A DNA stretch of 64,000 nucleotides from an uncultured Candidatus Rokubacteria bacterium (GTDB lineage Bacteria > Methylomirabilota > Methylomirabilia > Rokubacteriales > CSP1-6), in assembly GCA_963827505.1 (NCBI GenBank), contig CAWHBD010000001.1, forward strand, positions 2,310,663-2,374,662. Reading direction: 5' to 3'. How positions within the stretch are numbered: the stretch's first letter is position 1; every line of letters begins with the position of its first letter. Of this stretch, positions 1,345 through 29,786 are shown one piece after another. The notes beneath the pieces were generated by a model that was not told the DNA's origin, searched no databases, and saw nothing but the letters and a program-made list of their open reading frames with translations. Made by a program: the position numbers and the translations under genes.

Positions 1345-2013
1345 CTAGAGGGCGCGGGCCGCCTTGAGAATCTCCTCATCGCTGGGCTGCTTGCCGAGGT
1401 CGGTCATCCGCTCGATGCCCTCGATGTGCCGCCACCGGATGATCCCGTCCCGGTCGAGGAGGACGTGCCCGGCCAGCTGAAAGGCGTGCGCGGCCGCGAT
1501 CTGCTTGTCGACCTCGGTCAGCTCGAACCCGTCCCGCTGGTTCAGGGTCTCCATCGCCACGAAGGGATTCTGCGGCTCGGGCAGGTCTCCGGAGGGATTG
1601 ATCCGGATCGCCTGCATCTGGCCGATCGTGAAGGTGCCCTGGGCCCACGAGGTTGACGATTCGTCCTCGATCGGCGTGCCCTTGGGCAGCCCGAACGACT
1701 GGTGCGTCGCCACGTCCGGGTCCGCGGCCAGCAGCACGCGCGCGGGGCGATATTTGAAGTAGAGCCGCGCGCGCTCCAACGGGGTGTTGACCACCGCCAT
1801 CGTCTCGACACCCATCGCCTTCAGCTTGTCCTGGGTGGTGCCCAGCTGCACGATCTGGCGTCGGCAGAAGGGGCAGTGCAGCCCGCGGAACAGGCCAACC
1901 AGGACCGGAGCGCGACCGCGATAGTCGTCGAGCGAGACCTTGCCCTCTCGATTGACCGCGGGCAGTTCGAAGGGGGGCGCGGGATCACCAATCCGAGGGG
2001 GAGTGAACGCCAT
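1345..2013 (-). CDS. Peroxiredoxin-like thiol-disulfide oxidoreductase (AhpC/TSA/redoxin fold), CPFC active site
   Basis: Intact 222-aa ORF. GDPAPPFELP...VLVGLFRGLHCPFCRRQ is the redoxin-type CxxC context. SD AGGAGAA lies upstream of the ATG at 2013. Confidence 0.8.
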   Translation of the reverse strand: MAFTPPRIGDPAPPFELPAVNREGKVSLDDYRGRAPVLVGLFRGLHCPFCRRQIVQLGTTQDKLKAMGVETMAVVNTPLERARLYFKYRPARVLLAADPDVATHQSFGLPKGTPIEDESSTSWAQGTFTIGQMQAIRINPSGDLPEPQNPFVAMETLNQRDGFELTEVDKQIAAAHAFQLAGHVLLDRDGIIRWRHIEGIERMTDLGKQPSDEEILKAARAL

Positions 2014-9452: not shown

Positions 9453-10396
9453 ACCCGGCCGAGCGCTCGGTACTCCGGGAGGGCATCGTCGCCGGCCTGA
9501 TCGGCGCCGCCGTCGTTGCGATCTGGTTTTTTGTCTTCGATCTCCTGCGCGGCCACCCCTTCCTGACCCCCACCCTGCTCGGATCGTTCGTCTTCTTCGG
9601 CGTCAGCACCCCGGCCGGCCTGGCGCCCGCGGTGGGCCCGATCCTCGGCTACACGGTCCTGCACGGCCTGGCCTTCGTGGCCTTCGGCATCGTCGCCGCC
9701 ACCATGATGGCGATGAGCGAGCGCGAGCCGTCGCTGTTCGTCGCCTTCGTCATCCTCTTCGCCGCCTTCGAGGTCTGCTTCTTCGGCGTGCTGAGCATCG
9801 TGGGCCCGGCCATGCAGGCGGCGCTGGTGTGGTGGGCCGTGCTGGTCGGCAACCTGCTGGCGTCGATCGCCATGCTGTGGTTCTTCTTCCGCGCCCACCG
9901 GGCGCTGCCGCGCTCGCTGATCGGCTCCTGGGGCGGCGTCCTGCGCGAGGGCGTGATCGCGGGCCTGCTCGGCGCCGCCGTCGTCGCCCTGTGGTTCTTC
10001 GGCATCGACGCCATCCAGGGCGAGCCGTTGCGCACGCCGCACCTGCTGGGCACTGCCCTGCTACGGGGCAGTGGCGATCCGACGGCGGCGATGCTCGCCT
10101 ACACCGTGCTGCACGGGCTGGCCTTCGTCGTGTTCGGCATCGTGGGGGCGCTGCTGATCGAGGGCGCCGAGCGGCAGCCGCTGCTGGTCTTCGCGCTGGT
10201 GATCCTGTTCACGGCCTTCGAGATCTTCTTCTTCGGCGCCGTCATCATCATGGCCAGCTGGATCCTTGACGAGATCGCCGGCTGGACCATCTTCGTCGGC
10301 AACATCCTCGCCGCCGCCGTCATGCTCGCCTACTACTTCAAGGGACACCGCACGCTCGCTCGTCGCCTCACCCAGGCCTGGGCCGAAGAAGAGTAG
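9449..10396 (+). CDS. Uncharacterised polytopic membrane protein built from two homologous ~150-aa halves (2 x 4 predicted TM helices)
   Basis: The ATG at 9449 overlaps the FGE stop (ATGA). Half 1 reads VLREGIVAGLIGAAVVAIWFFVFD...YTVLHGLAFVAFGIVAA. Half 2 reads VLREGVIAGLLGAAVVALWFFGID...YTVLHGLAFVVFGIVGA. Confidence 0.7.
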   Translation: MNPAERSVLREGIVAGLIGAAVVAIWFFVFDLLRGHPFLTPTLLGSFVFFGVSTPAGLAPAVGPILGYTVLHGLAFVAFGIVAATMMAMSEREPSLFVAFVILFAAFEVCFFGVLSIVGPAMQAALVWWAVLVGNLLASIAMLWFFFRAHRALPRSLIGSWGGVLREGVIAGLLGAAVVALWFFGIDAIQGEPLRTPHLLGTALLRGSGDPTAAMLAYTVLHGLAFVVFGIVGALLIEGAERQPLLVFALVILFTAFEIFFFGAVIIMASWILDEIAGWTIFVGNILAAAVMLAYYFKGHRTLARRLTQAWAEEE

Positions 10397-10412
10397 CGCC
10401 AGCCCCCCGCCG

Positions 10413-11714
10413 TCAGCCGTCGGCCCGGCCGACGGCGTTACCGAAGCGCTTCTGCATGACGTCCGCGAAGGACAGACCGCGATCGGCAACGATGCTGCCG
10501 CCGCGCAGGCGGTAGCCGGCGCCGTCGCGCGCGGCCGCTGGCTCGATGCCGGCGCGCAGGTCGCGGGCGCCGCGCAGCAGCCGCCGCCGGAACTCGATGA
10601 TGGCGGCGTCGGTGGGGCCGAGGTGCTCGCGGGTGCGATCGGCGATCCAGCCCTGGCTGTCCTGGATCATCGCGTCCTGCTCGGACACGCCCTGGATGCC
10701 GGTGAAGGTGCGGCGCTTCTGGGCGTCGCGGTCGATGAGGTAGTCGTTGTCGCGGTTGCGGAGCGGGACGAAGCGCGCGTCGACCTCGGCGTGGACGGTG
10801 CGGCCGGCCCGGTAGGCCCGGCGCTCCTCCTCGGTGAGCGGCCGGTCGGGGTTCCACGTGTAGCAGAAGACCCACGCGGCCTCGTCGGTGATCGGCACCC
10901 ACGTCTGTCCGTGGATGTTCTCGCCGGGGAAGGCGTTGGGGGTCAGCGCGTGGTTGGGCAGCATGAACTGCGCGATGCGCCAGTAGCGGGCGTCGCCGTC
11001 GGCCGTGCGGGCGGCCCCGGCGACGAACCCGACGTCGTGGCCGACCACCTCGAACTCCGGGCGGGGGTCGTCCCGCATCCAGCGCGTCCGCTGGCGGTCG
11101 ACCGAGGAGCGGCTGACGGCGGCGTCGACCGCGTCGTCGGCCGACCACACCGGCATGTGCAGGAACGAGAAGTGGGCGGTGTCGAGCGCCCCCTCGCAGG
11201 CCTGGGCCCAGTTGCACTGCTGCAGCTTCTTCGACACGAACCGGTGGGCGGCCGGCAGCCGGGCGAACTCCAGCTCGGGCAGCGCCGGCGTGAGGGCGGA
11301 GGGGCCGAGGTAGGCCCAGACGAAATCGCCCCACTCGCGGGTGGGATAGGCGCCGGTCCGGACGCGCTCGCGAAAGCTGCTGGCGGGCGCCATGGTCGGC
11401 ATGTCCACGCAGCGCCCGTCGACGTCGAACTTCCAGCCGTGGTACGCGCAGCGGAGACCGCACGCCTCGTTGCGGCCGAAGAACAGGTTGGCGCCCCGGT
11501 GCGGACAGCGGGGATCGAGCAGGCCCACGCGCCCGTCGGTGTCGCGGAAGGCCACGAGGTCCTCGTCCAGGACCTTCACGCGGACGGGCGGGCCGTCGGG
11601 GTCGGGCAGCTCCTGGGCCAGCAGCACCGGCAGCCAGAACCGGCGGAAGAGCTCGCCCATCGCCGTGCCGGCCCCGGTGCGGGTGAGCAGCTCGTTGTCG
11701 GCCGCGCTCAGCAC
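10413..11714 (-). CDS. Rieske [2Fe-2S] non-haem-iron oxygenase, alpha-subunit type (VanA/KshA-like)
   Basis: Rieske motif CPHRGANL...CAYHGWKF and mononuclear iron motif DTAHFSFLH. Intact 433-aa ORF. Confidence 0.85.
   Translation of the reverse strand: MLSAADNELLTRTGAGTAMGELFRRFWLPVLLAQELPDPDGPPVRVKVLDEDLVAFRDTDGRVGLLDPRCPHRGANLFFGRNEACGLRCAYHGWKFDVDGRCVDMPTMAPASSFRERVRTGAYPTREWGDFVWAYLGPSALTPALPELEFARLPAAHRFVSKKLQQCNWAQACEGALDTAHFSFLHMPVWSADDAVDAAVSRSSVDRQRTRWMRDDPRPEFEVVGHDVGFVAGAARTADGDARYWRIAQFMLPNHALTPNAFPGENIHGQTWVPITDEAAWVFCYTWNPDRPLTEEERRAYRAGRTVHAEVDARFVPLRNRDNDYLIDRDAQKRRTFTGIQGVSEQDAMIQDSQGWIADRTREHLGPTDAAIIEFRRRLLRGARDLRAGIEPAAARDGAGYRLRGGSIVADRGLSFADVMQKRFGNAVGRADG
10416..10436. 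terminator. GC hairpin between convergent genes (possible bidirectional terminator)
   Basis: gccgtcggc-ccg-gccgacggc forms a 9-bp perfect stem. It lies 20 nt after the TAG of the plus-strand membrane gene and overlaps the stop of the Rieske gene. There is no clear U-tract. Confidence 0.3.
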
Positions 11715-25654: not shown

Positions 25655-27103
25655 TCACAACGAACTCGCCTGCTTAAGCTCCTTCCCCGGCCCTCCATCG
25701 TCGAGGACCCGGGACGCGGTCAGCCCGAGCGGCAGCGCGACCAGGGCCGGGTACCGCGCCAGCGTTTCCAGCCAGATCCCACCACCGGGCACCAGCACCG
25801 GCAGCGCCGCCAGCGCCACGAACACGGCGGCGCCGACGCTGGAGCCGGCCAGGGCGGCCGCCCGACCGTCGGCCAGCCGCGCCGGTGTCCACGCCGCCGC
25901 CGCCAGCCCGAGGCCGAGCAGGAGCAGCCGCCAGGGGTCCGGCGACCAGGCGGCGAGCGCGGTGGCCCCGGCGACCACGGCCGCCCACACCGCGGGGCGG
26001 GACCCAGCGGTGACGGCCAGCCGCCCGCGCAGGGCGATGGCCGCCGTCACCAGGAGCACACCCACCGCGCCGAGCACGAGCGCGGCCAGCACAGCGCCGG
26101 AATGCACACCGAGGGCGCGCGGCGGCAGGCGGAGCAGGGGCGCCAGCGTCGAGCCGCCGAGGGCGAGGTCGGGGGCTGCCGCGCCGGCGTACACGCCCCA
26201 GCCGACCGCGGCGGTCACCGTGGCCATCAGCACGAGCGGCCCCGCGGCCGCCGGGCGGCCCCGGCCATCCAGCGGCGGGACGAGCGCCAACGCGCCACCG
26301 ACGAGCGTGACGAGGGCGCCGAGCGCGGCGGGCAGCATCCATGGACCGCGGGTCGGCGCGTCGGCCCAAGCCACGCCGGTGGCCGGCGCGCTCGGCACGC
26401 GGCGGCCGGCCTCGAAGCGTAGCCGCGCGCCCGCCTCGACCGCGAGCTCGTCGCCGGGTCGCAGCGTGAGCGTCTCGCCGGCGCCCAGCCGCCACTCGCG
26501 CACCGTTGGCGGCGTCGCGTCCCGCTCGACGACGCGATAGAGGCCGGCCGAGAGCACGGTCACGCGCTGGCCCTCGGTGAAGCTCAGCCGGGCCGGGCGC
26601 GGGAACCGCTCGCCCGTCTGCACCCACCCGCTCGCGTCGGGAAACGTGAGCGCCGCCGGCCGGCCGCCGTGGCTCCACGCGGTCCACGGCGCGGCCCACG
26701 TGCGCGAGGCCACCGCGGCGAGCGGCAGGACGAGCCCGAGGGCCGCGAGCACGAGCACGGCGGGCCCGATGCGCCGTGCGGCCGGTAGCAGCGGCACCAG
26801 CACCGCCAGAGCGGCGGCCGCCCCTACGCCCACCCACGGGCCCGCGCCGAGCAACCCGGCGGCGTCGCCGGCGACCGCGAAGTCGGCGGCCAGCCCGAGC
26901 GTGATAGCGAGCACGGCGGCGGTGGCGGTGACGGGGTTCGCGCCGAGCGGGCGGCGGGTGGCGGCCAGCAGCGCGACGAGCGGCGCGACGAGCGCGCCGA
27001 GCGCCAGCCACGGCGCCTCGGCGTCGCCGGCGGCCACGCGCAGGACCACGGCCGTCAGCAGCACGGGCTGCAGCCAGACGGCGGCGGCGGCCAGCGCGGT
27101 CAT
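25655..27103 (-). CDS. Uncharacterised polytopic membrane protein with a central soluble (beta-rich) domain
   Basis: The ATG at 27103 forms an ATGA overlap with the upstream small ORF. Ala/Leu-rich TM segments flank WSHGGRPAALTFPDASGWVQTGERFPRPARLSFTEGQRVTVLSAGLYRVVERD...LTLRPGDELAVEAGARLRFEAG. Confidence 0.6.
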   Translation of the reverse strand: MTALAAAAVWLQPVLLTAVVLRVAAGDAEAPWLALGALVAPLVALLAATRRPLGANPVTATAAVLAITLGLAADFAVAGDAAGLLGAGPWVGVGAAAALAVLVPLLPAARRIGPAVLVLAALGLVLPLAAVASRTWAAPWTAWSHGGRPAALTFPDASGWVQTGERFPRPARLSFTEGQRVTVLSAGLYRVVERDATPPTVREWRLGAGETLTLRPGDELAVEAGARLRFEAGRRVPSAPATGVAWADAPTRGPWMLPAALGALVTLVGGALALVPPLDGRGRPAAAGPLVLMATVTAAVGWGVYAGAAAPDLALGGSTLAPLLRLPPRALGVHSGAVLAALVLGAVGVLLVTAAIALRGRLAVTAGSRPAVWAAVVAGATALAAWSPDPWRLLLLGLGLAAAAWTPARLADGRAAALAGSSVGAAVFVALAALPVLVPGGGIWLETLARYPALVALPLGLTASRVLDDGGPGKELKQASSL

Positions 27104-27386: not shown

Positions 27387-28082
27387 ATGGCCGACACGAT
27401 CCAGCGCGTGCTCGTGGTGACAGCGCACCCCGACGACTCGGAATTCGGCGCGGGTGGCACCATCGCCAAGCTCGCCAAGGACGGCTGCGAGATCACCTAC
27501 ATCATCGTCACCAACGGTAACAAGGGCTCGAGCGACCGCACGATGACGCCGGAGCGGCTGGCCGCCATCCGGGCCGAGGAGCAGCGCAATGCCGCCCGTA
27601 CCCTGGGCGTGGCCCGCGTGGAGTTCCTGGGCTACCCGGACGGCGAGGTGGAGGACACGCGCGAGGTCCGCCGCGAGGTGACGCGGCACATCCGCCGGTG
27701 GCGGCCGGACCTGCTCATCTGCCAGAGCCCCGCCCGCACCTACAACCTGGGCGCCTCCCACCGCGACCATCGCACCGTGGGAGGCGTGGCGCTCGACTGC
27801 GTCTATCCCCTCGCCCGCGATCACATGGCCTTCCCCGAGCTGATGCCCGAGCTCGAGCCGCACAAGGTGCGGCAGGTCTACGTGATGCAGTGGCAGAACC
27901 CGCAGCTCGTCCTCGACATCTCCGACGTCATCGACCTCAAGCTGCGCGCGCTGGCCTGCCACGCCAGCCAGTTCGCCGATTTCAAGGCGGTCGAGAAGCG
28001 CGTGCGCGAGCGCTCCGGCGAGATCGGCCAGGCCAAGGGCTTCGCCCACGCCGAGGGGTTCGATCACATCGTGCTGCCGTGA
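27387..28082 (+). CDS. PIG-L/LmbE-family N-acetylglucosaminyl deacetylase (MshB/BshB/Mca-like)
   Basis: VLVVTAHPDDSEFGAGGT...YPDGEV...HRDH motifs. SD GGAGAGGAG. Intact 231-aa ORF. Confidence 0.88.
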   Translation: MADTIQRVLVVTAHPDDSEFGAGGTIAKLAKDGCEITYIIVTNGNKGSSDRTMTPERLAAIRAEEQRNAARTLGVARVEFLGYPDGEVEDTREVRREVTRHIRRWRPDLLICQSPARTYNLGASHRDHRTVGGVALDCVYPLARDHMAFPELMPELEPHKVRQVYVMQWQNPQLVLDISDVIDLKLRALACHASQFADFKAVEKRVRERSGEIGQAKGFAHAEGFDHIVLP

Positions 28083-28819
28083 AGCTCACCGCGGGAGGGC
28101 TGGTCGCGCTCAGCCTGGGGCTTGCCGCCGGCGGCATCGGCGCCTACGTGCTGCTCTTTCGGGTGGCCGCCGTGCGCAACCACCCCGAGGGCTACGTCGT
28201 CGCGATGGGGCTGGCCACGGCCCTGGCGGCGGTGGCGCTGGCCCGCGCGCGGCGCTGGTTCACGTGGCTGGGGCTGGGGGTGACGGTCATCCTCCTGGTG
28301 GGCAGCGTCTTCTTCAACTTCGTCGCCGCCCGCGTGCCCACGACGCCGACGGCCCTGAAGGTGGGCGAGCCGGCCCCGGACTTCACGTTGTCCGACGCCG
28401 CGGGCCGGTCCGTCACCCTCAGCGACTTCCGCGGCAAGAAACCGGTCGTCCTCGTCTTCTACCGCGGCGCCTGGTGACCGTTCTGCGTCGCGGAGCTCCA
28501 AGGTCTTGGAGCGGCACTGTCGGAGGCGGAGAAGGCCGGGGTCGAGATCATCGCACTGTCGCCCGATCCCAACGAGCACAGCCAGCGGCTCGCCGAGGGG
28601 CTGCGCCTGGCCTATCGGTTCGTCTCCGATCGCGACCTGACGGTGACCCGCCGCTACGGGCTGGTGCACCCGCGCGGCGGCTCGGAGGGGCAGGACGTGC
28701 CGCGCCCGGCCACGGTAGTGCTCGACCGCAACGGCGTCGTGCGCTGGTTCTCGGTCACTGCCAACTTCCAGGTGCGGCCCGATGCCGCCGACGTCCTGCG
28801 CGCCGTGCGCGCGCTCTAG
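28079..28819 (+). CDS. Membrane-anchored (3 TM) peroxiredoxin-like protein with W-U-P-F-C motif; in-frame TGA at 28475-28477 proposed to be read as selenocysteine
   Basis: GTG 28079 (GTGA overlap with the PIG-L stop) opens ...[49 protein letters not shown]...IIALSPD...ATVVLDRNGVVRWF... ending at TAG 28817-28819. The 114 codons after the TGA stay in frame. Confidence 0.7.
28495..28512 (+). promoter_or_regulatory. SECIS-like hairpin: 7-bp stem GCUCCAA/UUGGAGC with GGUC tetraloop
   Basis: The stem starts 18 nt and the loop 25 nt after the UGA. The loop sequence is identical to the E. coli fdhF SECIS apical loop. Confidence 0.55.
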
Positions 28820-28826
28820 GACCGCC

Positions 28827-29786
28827 GTGACCGAGCAGGCGCTGATGCTGGCCCGGCTGGCGACCACCTCTGCGATGCTGCGCGAGCTGACCATCGACGT
28901 GACGGCCGAGCAGGCGGCGCGGCCGCCGGCGCCCGGCGAGTGGTCGGTGCTCGAAATCGTACGCCACCTCGTCGAGGGCGACCGCGACACCCTGCTGCCG
29001 CGGCTCCGGCGGATGCTGGCCGAGATGCGGCCCGTGTTTGCGCCGAGGGTCAGCGACGCCGGCGACACCAGTGACGTGACCACGCTCGTGGCCGCGCACG
29101 GCTCGGCCCGCGCCGAGGTGCTGAAGATCCTGGGCGGCCTCGACGCGGCCGGCTGGCGGCGCGAGGGCGTGAGCCCCAGCCGCGGCGTCCTCACCGTCGA
29201 GGGCTACGTGCGCAGCACCGATGCCCACGATACCGAGCACCTGCGGCAGATCCACGAGGCGCGGGCCCGGCTCGGCCTGCGGCCCAAGCGGTGCGAGGCG
29301 CGGGCGCCGCTGGCCGTGCCCGAGCTGATCGCGGCAATGACGGCGGCGGCGGGACGGCTGCGCGCAGTGGCGGCCGGCCTCGACGAGGCGCAGCGCCGCC
29401 AGCGTCCGCTCCCGGCCGAGTGGGGTCTGAACGAGGTGATGGCCCACCTGCTCCACGTCGAGACGAAGCTGTTCCTGCCCCGCCTGCGGCGCATCGCCGC
29501 CGAGGACTGTCCGACCTTCGCGCCGTTCAGCCCCGAGGCGTGGGCGCGGGAGCGCGATCACGGCCTGACGCCGTTCGACGACTCGCTGGTTGCCTTCGAG
29601 CGCGCGCGGGCCGAGACCATCACCTTTCTGCGTGCGCTGCCGGCGGGCGCCGGCGAGCGCCCCGCCGTCTCCGGCTTCTTCGGGCCGATGACGCTGTTGC
29701 AGTACGCGACCCACGCCGCCGACCACGACGTCGAGCACCTCGCCCAGATGGCGCGGGCCCGGGCGACCGCGCTGGGCCCGCGCTGA
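28827..29786 (+). CDS. Tandem double DinB-family (DinB_2-like) protein
   Basis: There are two homologous halves: EWSVLEIVRHLVEGDRDTLLPRLRRMLAE..RPVFAP...DAHDTEHLRQI, and EWGLNEVMAHLLHVETKLFLPRLRRIAAEDCPTFAP...AADHDVEHLAQM. The start is taken as GTG 28827, after the upstream TAG. Confidence 0.75.
   Translation: MTEQALMLARLATTSAMLRELTIDVTAEQAARPPAPGEWSVLEIVRHLVEGDRDTLLPRLRRMLAEMRPVFAPRVSDAGDTSDVTTLVAAHGSARAEVLKILGGLDAAGWRREGVSPSRGVLTVEGYVRSTDAHDTEHLRQIHEARARLGLRPKRCEARAPLAVPELIAAMTAAAGRLRAVAAGLDEAQRRQRPLPAEWGLNEVMAHLLHVETKLFLPRLRRIAAEDCPTFAPFSPEAWARERDHGLTPFDDSLVAFERARAETITFLRALPAGAGERPAVSGFFGPMTLLQYATHAADHDVEHLAQMARARATALGPR

Follow-up and report, generated by a model that had tools for sequence, protein, structure and literature searches.

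Does the gene at positions 28079 to 28819 of the DNA analysed here end at the in-frame TGA at 28475-28477, or is this codon read as selenocysteine (Sec, U in motifs)? The stretch, hereafter the window, comprises 64,000 nucleotides from an uncultured Candidatus Rokubacteria bacterium (contig CAWHBD010000001.1, positions 2,310,663 to 2,374,662). A first-pass annotation, made from the letters of the DNA, had proposed Sec. Our comparison with related sequences makes it very probable that selenocysteine is inserted at the UGA at 28475-28477. The proposal is supported by a TGA that is present in all 106 orthologous DNA sequences compared, a protein domain that spans the codon, a column of Cys in distant homologues, and a downstream hairpin that is under selection. 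As far as sequence can tell, we consider it highly likely that the locus encodes a single 246-residue protein, a membrane-anchored peroxiredoxin (Prx)-like oxidoreductase in which the insertion of Sec depends on SelB and the hairpin.

Reading frame and conservation of the TGA

The complete predicted selenoprotein frame runs on the forward strand from a GTG at 28079-28081 to a TAG at 28817-28819. It has 246 codons, including one for Sec, and is open apart from the TGA. The GTG overlaps the TGA stop (28080-28082) of the PIG-L gene upstream in a GTGA and aligns with the Met start of the orthologues. An equivalent start was called independently on another contig. The start and the overlap are as proposed in the first-pass annotation. 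The three hydrophobic helices that had been described, followed by a frame that stops at the TAG, are found again in the reading frame and the hydropathy profile. There are 113 sense codons 3' of the TGA and not 114 as first counted, a trivial slip; the frame does stay open to the TAG.

The composition is of coding type on both sides of the TGA, with a GC content at third codon positions of 0.97 before it and 0.89 after it. In a six-frame scan of the window, this is the only TGA with at least 40 coding-type codons on each side. Gene callers split the gene into a 132-residue piece and a 58-residue piece. With Cys substituted for the TGA-encoded residue, Pfam finds an AhpC/TSA domain (peroxiredoxin-like, thioredoxin fold) at 28361-28747 on the forward strand, residues 95-223, a match that crosses the TGA (AhpC-TSA, PF00578, 6.8e-33, 113.7 bits against a cutoff of 26). 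Redoxin (PF08534) matches at 1.7e-25. The redoxin-fold character that had been noted beyond the TGA is confirmed by this match and by the third-position composition. The first-pass annotation was also right that TGA serves as an ordinary stop elsewhere: it ends 25 of the 32 other coding-like open reading frames (ORFs) in the window, including the gene directly upstream, and this excludes a genome-wide reassignment of TGA.

We compared 106 orthologous DNA sequences, namely the window, 15 species genomes of Rokubacteria/Methylomirabilota (GTDB species representatives) and about 90 contigs from soil metagenomes. At this codon all 106 have TGA, without a single sense codon among them, and all remain in frame as far as a shared C-terminus. 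The sequences include 68 distinct 54-nt segments, and the protein identity among the TGA orthologues falls to 53%. In each of the 15 species genomes the TGA stands in W-*-P-F-C, and the frame continues to a common ...VLRAVRAL end. The continuation after the TGA has 110-118 residues in the 106 orthologues; it is conserved and completes the thioredoxin fold. In the metagenome scan the best 80 matches were evaluated, and all 80 have the TGA. A second, more distant metagenome clade, which is without the RNHPEGY motif and 53-55% identical, has TGA at the same codon.

Among the proteins retrieved by a search, dozens are 135-145 residues long and stop precisely at ...FYRG(Y/A)W, and others begin with (M/V)AELQGLGA. 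These are the two halves into which gene callers have cut one gene. Homologues that truly end after FYRG(A/Y)W, a possibility raised by the first-pass annotation, were not found, as all 106 orthologues continue in frame at the DNA level.

The redox motif U-P-F-C occupies 28475-28486 on the forward strand (TGA CCG TTC TGC), and distant homologues have Cys at the position of the TGA. One of them is a paralogue in the window itself (1345-2013, minus strand), which has no membrane anchor and reads GLFRGLH-C-PFC with the codon TGC. The identity of this paralogue is 25% (E = 7e-16), with CPFC in register with U-PFC. The Cys column is further found in L068, with the codon TGT, and in the proteins P0096, P0097 and P0100, with CPFC or CPYC. 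All these Cys homologues read continuously across the column. This agrees with the earlier placement of the TGA at the first Cys of a CxxC motif, for which the paralogue had been cited, and the Cys/Sec column that was to be looked for in an alignment is present.

Some single sequences differ. In L129, with the TGA at 1038, the motif is FYRGHW-U-PYC in place of W-U-PFC, and the hairpin is unchanged. L007 (CAVTGC010000008.1, 96% identical) has a frameshift within the gene at 10001-10739, upstream of the TGA. The frameshift probably reflects an indel of long-read assembly, and it may be relevant to the frameshifts noted elsewhere in the window. Two protein entries with no contig on record, P0014 and P0001, read the TGA position as Gly (…YWGPFW…) and Cys (…YWCPFC…), respectively. 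These residues may come from translation with alternative genetic codes and not from genuine sense codons.

The hairpin downstream of the TGA

A hairpin of the selenocysteine insertion sequence (SECIS) type lies at 28495-28512 on the forward strand, inside the codons for E-L-Q-G-L-G-A. Its 7-bp stem GCUCCAA/UUGGAGC closes the loop GGUC (28502-28505). The hairpin begins 17 nt 3' of the UGA, and its loop starts 25 nt after the UGA; stem, loop and position are as first described. The calculated energy is -9.1 kcal/mol. In the bacterial consensus (PMC13188914), the loop of a SECIS measures 3-9 nt, has a G within its first two positions and lies 16-37 nt from the UGA; the stem comprises 4-16 bp, and the energy does not exceed -7.5 kcal/mol. 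With a loop of 4 nt, a stem of 7 bp, GG at the start of the loop and a spacing of 24 nt, as well as in its energy, the hairpin lies within all of these ranges.

Across the family the 18 nt of the hairpin are practically invariant, the mean pairwise nucleotide identity over the gene being 82%. To quantify this we calculated the synonymous diversity from a codon alignment of 19 sequences. It is 0 for the stem codons CTC, CAA and CTT and 0.11 for GGA; the values are 0.29-0.58 for the 14 other conserved Leu columns and 0.22-0.63 for the 11 other conserved Gly columns. The Gly codon that carries loop position 3 has a synonymous diversity of 0.69, among the highest in the gene. The third base of the loop is T in 6, G in 9, A in 2 and C in 2 of the 19 sequences, so the loop of the family is GGNC.

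The frozen stem codons are rare ones, CAA making up 3% of the Gln codons, CTT 3% of the Leu codons and GGA 10% of the Gly codons. The third codon positions in the stem form the pairs Gln-3/Leu-2, Leu-3/Gln-2, Leu-3/Gly-2, Gly-3/Leu-2 and Glu-3/Ala-2 (residue and codon position). CAA, CTT and GGA are thus locked, because their synonymous sites pair with first or second positions of other codons. According to RNAalifold, the stem of the hairpin is the sole consensus structure. Among 49 distinct sequences 99.7% of the stem cells are paired, and the changes consist of three U-A to U-G and one C-A mismatch. Selection acts on the hairpin as RNA.

The first-pass annotation had called the hairpin fdhF-type, and this applies to the window more than to the family. 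Like the SECIS of Escherichia coli fdhF, which we checked in strain K-12, it lies just 3' of the UGA, and the GGUC loop in the window is identical. However, the loop of fdhF starts 19 nt after the UGA, compared with 25 nt here, and the 7-bp stem has no bulged U, unlike that of fdhF. The loop U is critical for the SelB of E. coli, whereas the third loop base varies freely (T, G, A, C) in the Rokubacteria family. The likeness to the fdhF SECIS is partial.

Decoding of the UGA

In the mechanism that we favour, the hairpin located 17 nt 3' of the UGA at 28475-28477, with its 7-bp stem and GGNC loop, would recruit SelB together with GTP and Sec-tRNA(Sec). Selenocysteine would be inserted, and the ribosome would carry on to the TAG at 28817. 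The product would consist of a three-helix N-terminal anchor and a thioredoxin-fold domain with the redox centre U-P-F-C, in which Sec would replace the N-terminal nucleophilic Cys of a CxxC motif and Cys would occupy the peroxidatic position of true peroxiredoxins. The protein would most likely be a selenol/thiol oxidoreductase that cycles via a selenenylsulfide.

Several results weigh against Sec. Searching with SelA, SelB and SelD of E. coli (tblastn), we found no selA, selB or selD in the window or in the loci derived from the genomes, and ARAGORN detected no tRNA-Sec, whether in the window, among the 15 genome loci or across the full set of 173 loci. Over the window and about 1.7 Mb of related flanks, neither the sel genes nor tRNA-Sec is seen. 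Rfam, run over the entire window at its gathering thresholds, matched nothing, and so no SECIS or tRNA-Sec model. Under the same rules for loop and spacing, 11.7% of the 1301 TGA triplets of the window, which has a GC content of 72%, precede a stem of at least 7 bp, and the fold of 61 nt is no better than that of shuffled sequences (z = 0.32). The structure of a single sequence carries little weight when comparable hairpins follow this many TGAs, and the case rests on conservation across sequences because one hairpin is not beyond chance. In the 49 distinct sequences there are zero compensatory changes in the stem, i.e. no covariation. This is because each third position in the stem pairs with position 1 or 2 of another codon, and a compensatory change would need a change of amino acid.

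The protein models add to these points. No NCBIfam model reaches its cutoff, selenoprotein models included. The best are two non-selenoprotein models, the thiol peroxidase NF006960 (62.6 bits, cutoff 140) and ResA NF002854 (59.5 bits, cutoff 170, covering residues 70-196). The top-scoring selenoprotein-related model is SelL-related NF040769 (52.4 bits, cutoff 120), and PrxU NF040737 obtains 45.1 bits (cutoff 270). Finally, there is one close Cys form, P0001 (76% identity). It was left out of the evidence for lack of a DNA record, and its Cys could stem from a TGA read with a different genetic code.

Two further candidates for Sec decoding or tRNA genes were considered. A SelD-like match among the metagenome loci (L117, 6853-7881) was rejected: it is a relative of AIR synthase in the HypE/ThiL/SelD superfamily, scores below every NCBIfam cutoff and is without the N-terminal Cys/Sec-Lys motif. 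ARAGORN also reports an 84-nt tRNA-Gln(CUG), with the anticodon at position 32, at 25800-25883 on the minus strand of the window. It has no Rfam tRNA match at the gathering score, lies inside long ORFs and is probably a false positive.

That the lineage uses Sec has indirect support from the literature on the phylum and from further TGA genes in related loci. A 2026 review reports 63 predicted selenoproteins for a Methylomirabilota genome (PMC13188914), and group 4 hydrogenases of the Sec type are present in Methylomirabilota (PMC13582414). We found no literature that deals specifically with selenium or selenocysteine in Rokubacteria. The Prx-like gene adjoins, in at least 10 related loci, a second candidate selenoprotein gene. 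It encodes a DedA(VTT)-rhodanese fusion and has an in-frame TGA of its own, which is conserved, in LYC(S/T)-U-P. This TGA is followed by its own hairpin, whose sequence is unlike that of the Prx-like gene. Of the NCBIfam models, NF041203, 'rhodanese-related (seleno)protein', matches the fusion best (86 bits, cutoff 115). Such genes are found at L003 10749-11690 (TGA 11556) and L092 4529-5470 (TGA 5336), and further in L005, L108 and L109 6149-7069, L120, L150, L159 and L123; the window does not contain one. On the minus strand of L131, a peroxiredoxin gene reads FYGADFSPV-U, with a TGA (18360) at the peroxidatic position, i.e. of the PrxU or TxxU type. The same contig carries the UxxC gene as well.

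The same hairpin and a SelB-like factor might instead recode the UGA to cysteine or another residue, which would make the protein an ordinary CxxC enzyme. All the evidence for recoding, i.e. the conserved TGA, the hairpin and the position in the active site, fits this equally well, and it would be in line with the missing genes for tRNA-Sec and Sec synthesis in the window and its related flanks. A parallel would be the tRNA-Sec-like tRNAs of some uncultured bacteria, which have been described as accepting Cys. Such systems are rare, however, and recoding to Cys has no obvious advantage over a TGC codon. The neighbouring rhodanese gene has its best match in a model named for selenoproteins, and the phylum is reported to be rich in selenoproteins (PMC13188914). 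We regard this alternative as very unlikely.

Even less probable is a leaky UGA, decoded independently of SelB by a near-cognate tRNA for Trp, Cys or Arg, in which case the hairpin would just slow the ribosome or stimulate read-through. The context in the family is always UGA-C. In E. coli termination is weakest in this context, and downstream hairpins can stimulate read-through. However, the codon coincides with the catalytic Cys position of a CxxC motif, at which Trp or Arg would abolish the function, and the geometry of the hairpin and its GG loop fit the SECIS consensus. In addition, an unrelated second gene on the same contigs has a TGA at its own active site, followed by a hairpin of different sequence.

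We see just as slight a chance that the TGA is a true stop, which would give a membrane protein of 132 residues and a separate C-terminal protein of 110 residues made by re-initiation at a nearby GTG or ATG. Gene callers give exactly such products in dozens of contigs, and many orthologues have a GTG or ATG 9 nt after the TGA. However, this codon is GTC in the window, ATC in L016, ACT in L084 and GCC in L083, so there is no conserved start for re-initiation. The split would also fall in the middle of the thioredoxin fold, parting beta1-beta2 and the first active-site residue from the rest, and the Cys homologues are continuous.

A pseudogene or an error of sequencing or assembly, for which the frameshift in L007 and those noted elsewhere in the window might speak, is the most improbable of the alternatives, as the TGA recurs in all 106 independent sequences, which stem from many samples and assemblers, and both the frame and purifying selection persist downstream of it; a base-call error or a private nonsense mutation is ruled out by a TGA common to the 15 species genomes and about 90 independent soil contigs.

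The predicted protein, its relatives and its neighbours

The preferred reading, one protein with Sec at the UGA, gives a product of two parts. The N-terminal membrane anchor (28094-28327, forward strand) has three hydrophobic segments, roughly at residues 6-27, 39-54 and 61-83, according to the hydropathy profile and the alignment of 19 orthologues. In these orthologues the loop that joins segments 2 and 3, RARRW, is conserved and strongly basic. By the positive-inside rule, the anchor would be oriented N-in/C-out and the catalytic domain would lie outside the cytoplasmic membrane. The N-terminal 90 residues match no Pfam family.

The alignment of the protein to solved BCP/Prx structures covers 150 residues. 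When it is compared with the BCP 2cx3 (FSPVC), Sec falls on the Ser/Thr of the peroxiredoxin T/SxxC motif and the Cys on the peroxidatic Cys. Prx-like UxxC selenoproteins have been described with this same layout. The conserved Arg of 2cx3 (KRAVFIV) falls on the Pro of PRPATVV, with an Arg one residue earlier in the alignment. At the positions of the peroxiredoxin triad the protein keeps the Cys, and the predicted Sec stands in for the Thr/Ser. A membrane-anchored Prx-like selenol/thiol oxidoreductase is the probable product.

The closest known class is that of the Prx-like thiol:disulfide oxidoreductase selenoproteins (PF00578, UxxC/UxxU; Table 1 of PMC13188914). Prx-like selenoproteins were predicted by Kryukov & Gladyshev 2004; 22 are known from the Sargasso Sea data. 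Like the UxxC members of this class, the protein has an AhpC/TSA domain, the predicted Sec as the first residue of UxxC, and Cys-containing homologues. Both have the thioredoxin-like UxxC instead of the TxxU of Sec-peroxiredoxins. Unlike that class, the protein in the window has a three-helix N-terminal anchor that lacks a family assignment, and its subfamily is found only in soil sequences of Rokubacteria/Methylomirabilota. The protein is assigned to the class by its domain and motif; the representative of the family is WP_010940744.1.

Other families share single traits. With the SelL-related/PRX_like2 proteins (NF040769; cd02970) the protein has the signature FYRG-x-W-[C/U]-P-x-C in common. 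A UxxS selenoprotein form is listed for cd02970 (PMC13188914). However, its 52.4 bits are below the 120 of NF040769, so it is no member by the NCBI rule, and its motif is UxxC, not UxxU or UxxS. PrxU (NF040737, TxxU) has the same Pfam domain and is a selenoprotein too, but there Sec replaces the peroxidatic Cys, whereas here the predicted Sec lies three residues earlier and the peroxidatic position keeps its Cys. ResA, TlpA and CcmG/DsbE also combine an N-terminal membrane anchor with a thioredoxin fold and a motif of the W-C-x-x-C type, and ResA is among the PDB matches. They have a single anchor helix, in contrast to the three found here, and the domain is nearer to BCP/Prx than to TlpA.

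In the window, the gene is flanked upstream by a PIG-L family deacetylase (27387-28082, forward strand) that is BshB1-like, or more generally BshB1/BshB2/Mca-like. It has a Pfam PIG-L match and obtains 110.8 bits with TIGR04001, for which the cutoff is 182.5. Downstream, at 28827-29786 on the forward strand, follows a protein with two DinB domains (Pfam DinB_2 twice) that resembles the bacillithiol transferase YfiT (NF009807, 57.6 bits, cutoff 160) and the mycothiol-dependent MDMPI (TIGR03083). Both families are associated with the metabolism of low-molecular-weight thiols, and the two flanks suggest a link to such thiols. The adjacency of PIG-L is kept only in the closest relatives, L002, L004, L007 and L013, and that of the double-DinB gene only in L007 and L013. 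A conserved operon for low-molecular-weight thiols was dropped as a general explanation, since these flanks occur only in the closest relatives and the neighbours elsewhere are unrelated.

The pairing of the Prx-like gene with the DedA-rhodanese gene is previously undescribed. It is conceivable, though on present evidence rather unlikely, that the Prx-like protein and the DedA-rhodanese candidate selenoprotein form a membrane-bound module for redox reactions or selenium/sulfur trafficking in Rokubacteria, with the Sec site facing outward. If this were true, SelB-dependent recoding would have to be coordinated with co-translational membrane insertion.

The class of Prx-like UxxC proteins has been known since 2004; new are the Rokubacteria subfamily, the membrane anchor and the systematic mis-annotation. 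Neither the known mechanism of Sec decoding nor the known roles of such enzymes are changed by the finding. The hairpin provides a clean example of a SECIS within a coding sequence that can be recognised without covariation, by rare codons frozen at synonymous sites because each site pairs with a base constrained by the protein. The gene family is common in soil Rokubacteria/Methylomirabilota and mis-annotated in public databases, where each of the more than 100 copies seen in this analysis appears as a pair of truncated ORFs named 'redoxin' or 'hypothetical'; P0012, a 140-residue NCBI entry that ends at ...FYRGYW, is an example. Once corrected, the family would bring a member with a membrane anchor into the Prx-like selenoprotein class and enlarge the selenoproteome of a phylum that is reported to be rich in selenoproteins.

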